NCBI GenBank assembly: GCA_951406725.2
Contig: OX597816.1
Span: 143,468,001 to 143,532,000, forward strand
Direction of reading: 5' to 3'
Length of the DNA stretch: 64,000 nucleotides
Origin: Octopus vulgaris
Lineage: Eukaryota
Positions 39,659-55,144 of the stretch are shown in pieces. Position 1 is the first letter of the stretch; each line of letters begins with the position of its first letter. The notes beneath the pieces are model-generated. The model worked only from the letters and a program-made list of their open reading frames with translations. It was not told the DNA's origin and ran no database searches. The translations under genes and the position numbers were made by a program.

Positions 39659-40132
39659 CAGGCCTCGACTAGAAAAGCTAAAACTTTATTCTCTCCAACG
39701 TCGCCGTGAGCGCTACATCATCTGCATGATGTGGAAAATATTCCATCAGCATTGGCCAAATGATGTTGGCATCACCTTTAAGGTACATCCAAGGCTTGGG
39801 CCCCGTGCCATCCGCCCACAACAAAAATCGCACTCTCATCTCATAACAACAATACGGCACAATTATTTCACCTCAATTGGCCCCGCTCTTTTTAACATTA
39901 CACCAAAACACATTAAAACAGAAACAGACCCTATAGGGTTCAAGAAGTCTTTGGACAGATTCCTTCAAGAAATCCCGGATAAACCTCCTACACCTGGATA
40001 TGTCTCTGTAAACAATAACTCTCTACTTGAGTGGGCCATAGTGCCCAAATTCTGACTTGAAAGACTTCACCAGGTGGTGCTATTAAGTTAGACATGGCCT
40101 GGGCCAATAATGGCCGAAACCTATCAAAGTAT

Positions 40133-40136
<4 letters not shown>
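39651..40136 (+). mobile_element. 5'-truncated CR1/L2-group LINE 3' end within (TA)n
   Basis: RLEKLKLYSLQRRRERYIIC..WKI...GPALFN...FKKSLDRFL..IPDKP is open to the stop at 40055. (TA)n flanks both ends. Confidence 0.9.
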
Positions 40137-40197: not shown

Positions 40198-40900
40198 AAT
40201 CTAGTTTCAGCTCACTAGCTGTGGCCATGCTGGGGCACCGCCATTTGGTGTTGCTACATGATTTTACTTCACGAATGCTTTTTAGCAATTGCCATTTGGT
40301 GCATGAGAGATTTCGATGCAGCTGCCCTTATCTGCACCTCCTGCTGTGAAGTTGTTTCATCTGGGATACCTGACAAGAAGAGATCCAGTTTCATTTTAAA
40401 GACATCTGCATCCACTCCATGCAGGTCTCTTAGGTTCTTCGGGAGGATATTGAAGAGCTGTGGGCCTCGGAAGCCCAGGCTATCACAGTATCTTGTCCTA
40501 CATCTTGATGGCAAATTTGGAGTCCTTGGCACTATGCAGTGGCACCCAGTTCTGGCATTTGTGTAACTCTCGATGCCAAAGTTTGGGACAAGTCCTTCTA
40601 GAATCTTCCAGATGCATATTATGGCATATCTTTCTCGCCTACGCTCTAAGGAATAGAGTCTCAATCTCTTGAGTTTTGCCAATAGCTTATATGCTGCACA
40701 GAGGCTGTCTTCGTGTAGCTTCGTTGGATCGCCTCAAGTTCTGTGATTAACTTGACACTGGATGAGAGCAATAGTCAAAGTGGCTTAGGACAAGTGCCCT
40801 CCAGAGGACCATCATGGTTTCTGGTCTCTTGTTCTGAAGGTTCAGCCGCCTACATTTCATTGCCAATTTAGCAACATGCACATGAAAGGTTGCATCATCA
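40198..40900 (-). mobile_element. CR1/L2-group LINE 3' end (second family)
   Basis: LKRLRLYSLERRRERYAIICIWKILEGLVPN...RGPQLFNILP...FKMKLDLFLSGIPD. Its 3' tail resembles the family B SINE tail. Confidence 0.9.
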
Positions 40901-53867: not shown

Positions 53868-54330
<463 letters not shown>

Positions 54331-54416
54331 ATAGCTCAGTCGGTAGAGCATCAGACTTTTATAGGTCAACCTTAGAAGTAATCTGAGGGTCGCGGGTTCG
54401 AGTCCCTCTGCGGGCG
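54331..54416 (+). tRNA. tRNA-Lys(UUU) pseudogene, intron-containing, 5'-truncated by 6 nt
   Basis: ATAGCTCAGTCGGTAGAGCATCAGAC-T-TTT-A, a 19-nt insert (54362-54380) at the canonical 37/38 position, then ATCTGAGGGTCGCGGGTTCGAGTCCCTCTGCGGGCG. Acceptor positions 1-6 are absent and there is no CCA. Confidence 0.9.
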
Positions 54417-54426
54417 TATGGAACTA

Positions 54427-54801
54427 GTTGGCATTACCTTCAAAATACATCCAAGGCTTGGACCACGTTCCATCCGTCCACGACAAAAATCTAAATCGCA
54501 TCACATAACGACAATACGGCACAATTATTTCACCTCAATTGGACCCGCTCTCTTCAACATTACACCAGGACACGTCAAAACAGAAACTGACCACACAAAA
54601 TTCAAGAAGTCTTTGGACAAATTCCTTCAAAGAGTCCCGGACAAACCACCCACACCCGGATATGTCTCCGCAAACAATAACTCTCTGCTGGAATGGGACT
54701 CGGTGCCCAAATCCTGAATTGAATGACTTCGTCAGGTGGTGCTCTTAAGTTAGACATGGCCTGGGCCCATACTGGCCAAAACCTTTCTATGTTATTCTAA
54801 G

Positions 54802-54822
<21 letters not shown>
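54427..54822 (+). mobile_element. CR1/L2-group LINE 3' end fused behind the tRNA
   Basis: VGITFKIHPRLGPR...GPALFNITP...FKKSLDKFL...NNNSLLEW is collinear with the copy at 39765-40136. Confidence 0.92.
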
Positions 54823-54885
<63 letters not shown>

Positions 54886-55144
54886 ATATATACATTTATA
54901 AATTTTTACTGGGAAAAGTTTGACAGTGTCTTCGAGTTTCGGCTTGCTCAGCATCATCTGATGATGTGCTGAGCAATGACTTCTAAATGAATCTGGCACA
55001 CGGAAACTGTAAGGAAGCTCGTTGTATACGCATACAAACACACACATGATTGAATCTTCCATGCGTCAACATTTACCTTCTTGCAACAATGTAACCTTTA
55101 ATTTAATCAAGATATCGCTGGATTTTTGCCACTGAAAGAAGCCC

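Follow-up and report, generated by a model that had tools for sequence, protein, structure and literature searches.

A tRNA joined to the 3′ end of a LINE may be a resident gene beside a later insertion, a single chimeric retrocopy or a member of a SINE family, and the unit that begins at position 54331 of the window raises this question. The window is the whole stretch of 64 000 nt that was analysed (G000:C3:143468001-143532000), within a genome of 2.8 Gb; positions of the unit are counted from the window start. Its features are collected in Table 1.

Table 1. Features of the tRNA–LINE unit and of its surroundings in the window.
Feature	Position	Strand	Remarks
Degenerate (TA)n tract	53870..54330	.	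5′ side of insertion site
tRNA-Lys(UUU) exon 1, nt 7-37, nt 1-6 absent	54331..54361	+	A box 54332-54343
19-nt tRNA intron at 37/38	54362..54380	+	Identical to intron of C9 resident genes
Exon 2, nt 38-73, without CCA	54381..54416	+	B box 54395-54405; A58 unchanged at 54401
3′ trailer of parent gene G000:C9:94936061	54417..54425	+	8/9 bases match; terminator T run down to one T
One junction base (A)	54426	+	Absent from both parent trailer and LINE
LINE ORF2 3′ end (APE + RT element)	54427..54717	+	Stop codon 54715-54717
LINE 3′ UTR	54718..54803	+	Two predicted hairpins and short terminal repeat; departs from family majority e.g. at 54744, 54768
(TA)20 (TG)20 tract	54803..54883	.	3′ side of insertion site; TA part 54803-54843
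T5 run, first downstream	54903..54907	+	Likely Pol III stop if unit is transcribed, ~575 nt
Solo 5′-truncated LINE copy, related subfamily	39652..~40139	+	Between TA tracts; 83% identical to tail; not tail's source

Structure of the tRNA–LINE unit

An earlier note on this DNA had described a tRNA-Lys(UUU) with a 19-nt intron at 37/38 and without nt 1–6 and CCA, a 10-nt linker behind it and TA tracts around the whole. All of this is read directly in the sequence, the tRNA at 54331–54416 and the linker at 54417–54426. The LINE 3′ end, which the note had put at about 400 bp, is present with a corrected length of 376 bp. The solo copy of the same LINE end, placed by the note at 39765–40136, also exists; its real span is longer (Table 1), and it belongs to a different subfamily (312 of 375 columns identical). 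The A and B boxes are intact and the tail is free of long T runs, as had been claimed: the first run of four or more T after the anticodon loop starts at 54903, and the LINE tail has none. The tRNA scores 37.6 bits (E 2.6e-4) with Rfam, which we used for tRNA calls instead of ARAGORN; the latter detected no tRNA gene in the window with bacterial settings, and relaxed settings gave mostly noise.

The unit combines a Pol III head carrying A and B boxes with a LINE-derived 3′ recognition tail, the two parts of a tRNA-derived SINE. It is thus SINE-like in architecture, and its transcription appears possible, judging from the intact boxes and the lack of a terminator until 54903. It equally has the arrangement of a chimeric retrocopy, with a small RNA 5′ of a 5′-truncated LINE in the same orientation. 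The marks of a resident gene (complete acceptor stem, conserved upstream flank and T-run terminator) are absent: a TA tract stands where nt 1–6 of the parent and its upstream flank would be. TA tracts lie on both sides of the unit. An in-frame ATG at 54418 opens a 99-codon ORF2 remnant, which we treat as incidental.

Parent gene and linker

The earlier note had proposed a search for a parent gene with the same intron and trailer, and such a gene was found at C9:94936061; it is identical to the window copy across nt 7–73 and the intron, and eight of nine trailer bases match. Intron-bearing tRNA-Lys(UUU) genes are clustered on C9 and C6 (66 cluster genes parsed), and introns of such genes in molluscs were reportedly described by Matsuo et al. 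in 1995. The introns of the resident genes measure 11 to 31 nt; the 31-nt intron of the gene at G000:C9:94908014 contains a 12-nt duplication.

Upstream of 54427, every long LINE relative differs from the window sequence, which rules out a linker derived from the LINE. Because the parent trailer matches and the LINE relatives diverge at this point, we read the linker as the trailer plus one extra base. The suggestion that the linker may be the 3′ trailer of the tRNA therefore holds for nine of its ten bases and fails for the tenth, the A at 54426, which was either untemplated or substituted later. Two loose contig ends (runs X1 and X5) carry the parent trailer on from 54425. Of the 24 sequencing runs considered, none of RNA, the best shared 0.51 of the sampled words; among the 32 contig pieces listed from four runs, with 4,430 more outside the list, none crosses the junction, and contigs lose rare variants.

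The same parent gave rise to two unspliced copies without a partner, L002 and L005, which lie in TA tracts, start at nt 4 and no longer have the T run of the terminator. Six or more dispersed copies can be traced to its trailer type.

The LINE tail and its family

A copy of the tail-donor LINE (L109) holds an open ORF2 stretch of 934 aa, in which Pfam gives PF14529, PF03372 and PF00078 only. The element has an APE endonuclease and an RT, and neither a restriction-like endonuclease nor an RNase H domain appears in this frame, as in the CR1 group; from its motifs we take it to be CR1-like. The nearest named relative of its protein is from Argonauta hians, which suggests an octopod host, and the listed homologues include no named clade reference. 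Among 40 scored of 1,887 candidates, the sequences closest to the tail are found at other sites of the genome, with 96–97% identity, and the solo copy at 39.7 kb was rejected as its donor with 83%. Beside that solo copy, at 40200–40300 on the minus strand, lies the 3′ end of a second LINE ('B') without a tRNA head.

The window tail differs from the majority of its subfamily at 11 of 374 positions (2.9%), and 7 of these 11 differences occur in none of 29 relatives. Over the tRNA and its trailer, a single mismatch to the parent occurs in 96 positions; the two rates are not distinguishable (p 0.47), and the tRNA part and the LINE part are compatible with one age. On the clock quoted for Octopus, where a JC distance of 0.065 corresponds to 18 My (PMC13282606), the insertion would be about 8 My old.

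A recurrent class of tRNA-Lys chimeras

Copies of tRNA-Lys were enumerated by three patterns, which returned 50 with the window intron, 88 with any intron (cluster and dispersed) and 27 spliced; as diverged copies escape such patterns, all counts are minimum values. The dispersed set comprises 70 copies, that is, 76 loci minus four probable resident singletons and two duplicates. A LINE or SINE lies within 30 nt of the tRNA 3′ end in 52 of them, 51 in sense and one in antisense. Six of the nine entries of the partner library were cut from loci of the tested set, and without these self-hits the ratio is 45/46 sense. Among the control genes, the single match in 70 (L165) is itself a chimera, so that none of 69 resident genes abuts a partner. 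Control windows shifted by 400 and 600 nt gave sense to antisense ratios of 13:9 and 8:9.

The trailers vary between dispersed copies, and because they differ from copy to copy we regard the chimeras as independent events. The unit in the window is one of dozens of them, some with the same LINE family, a class that the earlier note had missed. The partner is a full-length SINE, joined at its first bases, in 14/51 of the sense fusions and a very short tail in about 26. Spliced copies retain both the leader and the trailer of intron-bearing parents, which are C9 genes for L034 and L035 and the gene L241 for L101, L104 and L106; L036 shows the same retention. This combination shows that the template was RNA and that it was spliced before its ends were trimmed. 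Candidate target-site duplications of 23 short-tail chimeras average 4.6 nt, no more than chance would give, since shuffled pairs average 4.1 nt and 22% of the shuffles were as high; a 15-bp duplication was seen at L097 alone.

Several individual loci are worth recording. The 5′ truncations of the dispersed copies concentrate in the acceptor stem at nt 2–9 (eight at nt 7, eight at nt 5), often beside TA- or AT-rich DNA. The 5′ end of L014 consists of several tandem partial repeats of tRNA nt 1–14, suggesting repeated re-priming by the RT. In L037, L039, L105 and L081, a read-through 3′ flank of 30–100 nt precedes the SINE, and these copies possibly derive from Pol III read-through transcripts. 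L097 (G000:C1:159763000-159765000) is a mature tRNA-Lys copy with CCA and T58, without a partner and with a 15-bp target-site duplication; it was probably made by a different LINE machinery. L135 has three tRNA matches in 3 kb and is probably another resident tRNA cluster.

A junction hot spot and other Pol III heads

The window LINE, LINE B and several SINEs have a motif in common, and the starts of the short tails lie immediately before it, at about 55–70 nt from the 3′ end of the partner. The junction in the window lies inside ORF2, away from this hot spot. The B motif has 7,745 exact matches in the genome. In the first 30 copies by position, taken unselected, similarity to the LINE is lost within 3 nt of the motif in 11. 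An amplified SINE accounts for three of the 11 and U6 chimeras for two (L180 by Rfam, L168 by eye), which leaves six others. At two per 30, the B tail as a whole would have about 500 chimeras (95% range about 60–1,700; the sample is one chromosome end). The amplified element (L176, L181, L189) is a tRNA-like SINE whose B tail starts at the hot spot of the single-copy chimeras. The hot spot also yields short solo inserts without a captured RNA.

The B motif with an upstream T run has 108 exact matches. Among the first 30, Rfam finds an abutting head in 12: U6 in two, 5S in one and tRNA in nine, one of which is 113 nt long and, given this length, bears an intron. Two more of the 30 carry fragments of U6 or tRNA-Leu. 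In the window LINE family, 7 of 25 distinct T-run loci carry tRNA heads or fragments, with whole heads at L203, L208 and L222 (= L106) and fragments at L202, L207, L209 and L213; in four of the 25 the T run is native to a long LINE copy. In L209, a 5′ part of tRNA-Lys that ends at the anticodon U run is joined to the tail of this family. U6, 5S and other tRNAs are captured like tRNA-Lys, mostly at the hot spot.

A signature at position 58

Among the dispersed tRNA-Lys copies that reach position 58, T takes the place of A58 in 12 of the 24 that are spliced and in 2 of the 40 that are unspliced (p 4.6e-5). The copy in the window is unspliced and keeps A58. T58 occurs in none of 65 cluster genes; 64 read A, and two G rows are shifted by a 1-nt deletion. 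The remaining A positions of the spliced copies show at most one change each, with positions 22–47 constrained by the search pattern. A pattern for any base other than A at this position returned 14 loci, with 12 T, 2 C and no G, three of which appear to start at G59 (L233, which is ambiguous, L234 and L238); the trailer of L234 matches the resident gene L164. A second, intronless tRNA behaves alike: in tRNA-Gly(GCC), all 36 clustered genes have A58, and the 24 singletons have 15 A, 8 T and 1 G (p 2.9e-4). Seven of the eight T58 tRNA-Gly loci are joined in sense to a partner, one of them weakly.

A single amplified T58 variant is ruled out as the source, since T58 stands with many different trailers and beside either G57 or A57, and a resident T58 gene is ruled out by the cluster genes. 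The modification m1A58 is typical of eukaryotic tRNAs and causes both arrest and misincorporation by RTs (PMC4787781). The change from A to T is likely a reverse-transcription signature of m1A58 that was fixed in the genome. When sister copies were made from spliced precursors, the RT would have encountered m1A58, with either misreading as T or arrest as the outcome. L099 and L101, which are spliced and derive from different parents, both show T to A at position 33 in the anticodon loop, possibly another misreading by the RT. A literature search of limited coverage gave no report of an m1A58 signature preserved as A58T in genomic copies.

Mechanism of formation

A resident tRNA gene with a LINE landing downstream was rejected for the unit, because nt 1–6 of the acceptor stem and the upstream flank are gone; the tRNA is a retrocopy of a precursor. 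The view of the earlier note that an RT copied a precursor tRNA agrees with the parent trailer and the retained intron, both of which support an RNA-mediated chimera. As to how the two parts were joined, the unit is a single-copy chimera, in which an unspliced pre-tRNA-Lys(UUU) stands before a LINE 3′ end, and it was probably made in one insertion by a LINE RT that jumped from its own RNA onto the U-ended trailer. Synthesis would be primed at the TA tract and run across 376 nt of the LINE; the RT would then stall and add untemplated bases, mostly A, that pair with the oligo-U end of the precursor. Copying of the trailer, exon 2, intron and exon 1 would follow, and the second strand would be joined at nt 7 in AT-rich target DNA.

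For the R2 RT, jumps are described as requiring untemplated additions, mainly of A (PMC8857657), and by analogy such additions would select U-ended Pol III precursors. The same source also gives a 3-nt A overhang as nonproductive in vitro and ascribes the human L1 chimeras to prior RNA ligation. A literature search on template jumping onto oligo-U ends found no report. At the unit itself, two observations speak against a jump, since the junction keeps one T only, so that pairing with oligo-U is not visible, and lies off the hot spot. Head and tail are also not linked into a single event by a target-site duplication; the site is a TA tract.

The strongest alternative, which we nevertheless consider unlikely, is that ligation came first: RtcB would join a cyclic-phosphate pre-tRNA to cleaved LINE RNA, and the chimera would then be retrotransposed, as for human U6/L1. 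tRNA splicing leaves a cyclic phosphate at the anticodon loop, where L209 is joined, and the fixed hot spot, with 11/30 unselected B-tail copies breaking within 3 nt, could be an RNA cleavage site. However, the 14 fusions at the very 5′ end of a full-length SINE involve a Pol III end that should be triphosphorylated, and nascent Pol III trailers end in U-OH. Two Gly copies with mature CCA ends (L254, L261) are also fused, and the short solo inserts at the hot spot arose without any captured RNA to ligate. The ligation route is proven for U6/L1, where a cyclic phosphate is joined to a 5′-OH (PMC6789731).

A sequence of two insertions, in which a solo pre-tRNA retrocopy in the TA tract was followed by a TA-associated LINE one base behind its trailer, seems to us improbable. 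L002 and L005 are precedents for its first step, as their trimmed trailers run straight into TA; the extra A could be a remnant of TA; and (TA)3 or longer repeats lie within 25 nt of the 3′ end in 26 of 29 LINE relatives. Yet the second insertion would have to fall within a base or two and in sense, and the tRNA part is no more diverged than the LINE. Direct chimeras are moreover the rule among the dispersed copies (51/70), including those with the window LINE family (L106, L213 and L209).

Extended from the single jump at this unit to the whole class, the jumping mechanism gives a broader scheme that we offer tentatively, as possible rather than probable. Several CR1-like LINE RTs would stall at one site shortly before their 3′ recognition hairpin and from there jump to any Pol III RNA with a U end. 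Hundreds of head-plus-tail proto-SINEs would be seeded in this way at the boundary where existing SINEs took their tails. The copies would form a germ-line fossil record, in which m1A58 is placed mostly after splicing and before end trimming.

Single copy or SINE family

The earlier note had suggested here a snapshot of SINE birth and had proposed a genome-wide search for its junction, many copies of which would indicate a SINE family. The junction pattern has one exact match in 2.8 Gb, the mark of a single chimera. No daughter copy of the unit was found among the enumerated tRNA-Lys copies, and the position at which its head joins the LINE is repeated in no other of the 76 dispersed loci inspected. 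Shared junctions among these loci are limited to two pairs, which we take as segmental duplicates because their flanks are shared too. The many interspersed copies with one head–tail junction that define a SINE are thus absent, and with a unique junction and a tail 3% diverged with no daughter found, the unit is not a SINE family. Nor is it an isolated case, as similar chimeras are common.

The intact A and B boxes, the LINE recognition tail and the late terminator would also suit a nascent transcribed master copy whose past or current daughters escaped the patterns, and the upstream TA tract might serve as a TATA element. The junction found once, the 76 loci without its join and the changes that the tail has accumulated in the 3′ UTR hairpin region make this very unlikely. 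Least credible of all is an error of assembly, in which reads of a tRNA and of a LINE would have been merged over the TA repeats: long TA tracts, in which assemblies are error-prone, do flank the locus, but the junction is not within a repeat, the tail has private variants, and dozens of like chimeras have different parents and partners.

Comparison with known systems

The interest of these observations is carried by the class and by the signature at position 58; the window locus is modest by itself. The acquisition of LINE tails by SINEs is usually inferred from old consensus sequences, and here many independent intermediates can be counted, dated and assigned to parents, which makes testable what a chimera needs to amplify. 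The pattern at position 58, if the m1A58 reading is true, would be the signature that an RNA modification left on an RT in vivo, recorded in the DNA of the germ line. Both the modification state and the order of steps in tRNA processing could then be read from a genome sequence by itself, wherever such copies exist. Annotations of dispersed tRNA, U6 and 5S genes also call for caution, since in such genomes many of them are retrocopies. Our literature search, limited in coverage, met no report of pre-tRNA chimeras in cephalopods, nor of sense ones at such a scale; the repeat library of PMC13282606 may list some of the heads.

The closest known cases come from platypus and lizard (Doucet et al. 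2015, PMC4476161): in the U6/L2, U6/Mon-1, U6/RTE and U6/AnolisSINE2 chimeras, too, a Pol III RNA in sense is followed by a short stretch from the 3′ end of a stringent-type LINE or SINE. As described there, they are often 5′-truncated with small or no target-site duplications and are attributed to template switching, and the chimeras studied here are alike in this. By comparison with what that source describes, most heads here derive from tRNA precursors, whether unspliced, spliced but still with leader and trailer, or mature, and U6 and 5S occur besides; the host is a cephalopod; the junction hot spot is common to several families; and the position-58 signature is added.

Human U6/L1 chimeras (Moldovan et al. 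2019, PMC6789731) likewise have a small RNA, in sense, on the 5′ side of a LINE that is truncated to varying extents. They are made by RtcB from cyclic-phosphate U6 and 5′-OH L1 RNA, whereas many of our junctions, at SINE 5′ ends, trailers or CCA, fit ligation poorly. In human tRNA/L1 chimeras a tRNA is co-inserted with the LINE as well (bioRxiv 10.1101/2025.02.02.635956); the 21 loci given there are mostly antisense tRNA halves ascribed to twin priming, in contrast to the near full-length precursors seen here, 51/52 in sense. Unprocessed tRNAs copied by LINE machinery, which implies nuclear recruitment, are known as tailless and pre-tRNA retropseudogenes (Schmitz 2004, cited by PMC4476161 and PMC5322556). 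L002, L005 and L097 resemble them. As characterized in these citing papers, they are 3′-truncated and have no LINE tail, whereas the window copy has both a trailer and a LINE tail.

Finally, tRNA-derived SINEs with LINE tails, such as the mollusc SINEs with CR1 tails (PMC4758252) and SINEU (PMC4494074), have the same head-plus-tail plan, for which a template switch is proposed as the origin. Compared with the SINEs of those reports, the chimeras here lack amplification, a common junction and a central core. By Kojima's criterion, under which tail-only copies are many and chimeras a minority, the chimeras of this genome are independent retrocopies.
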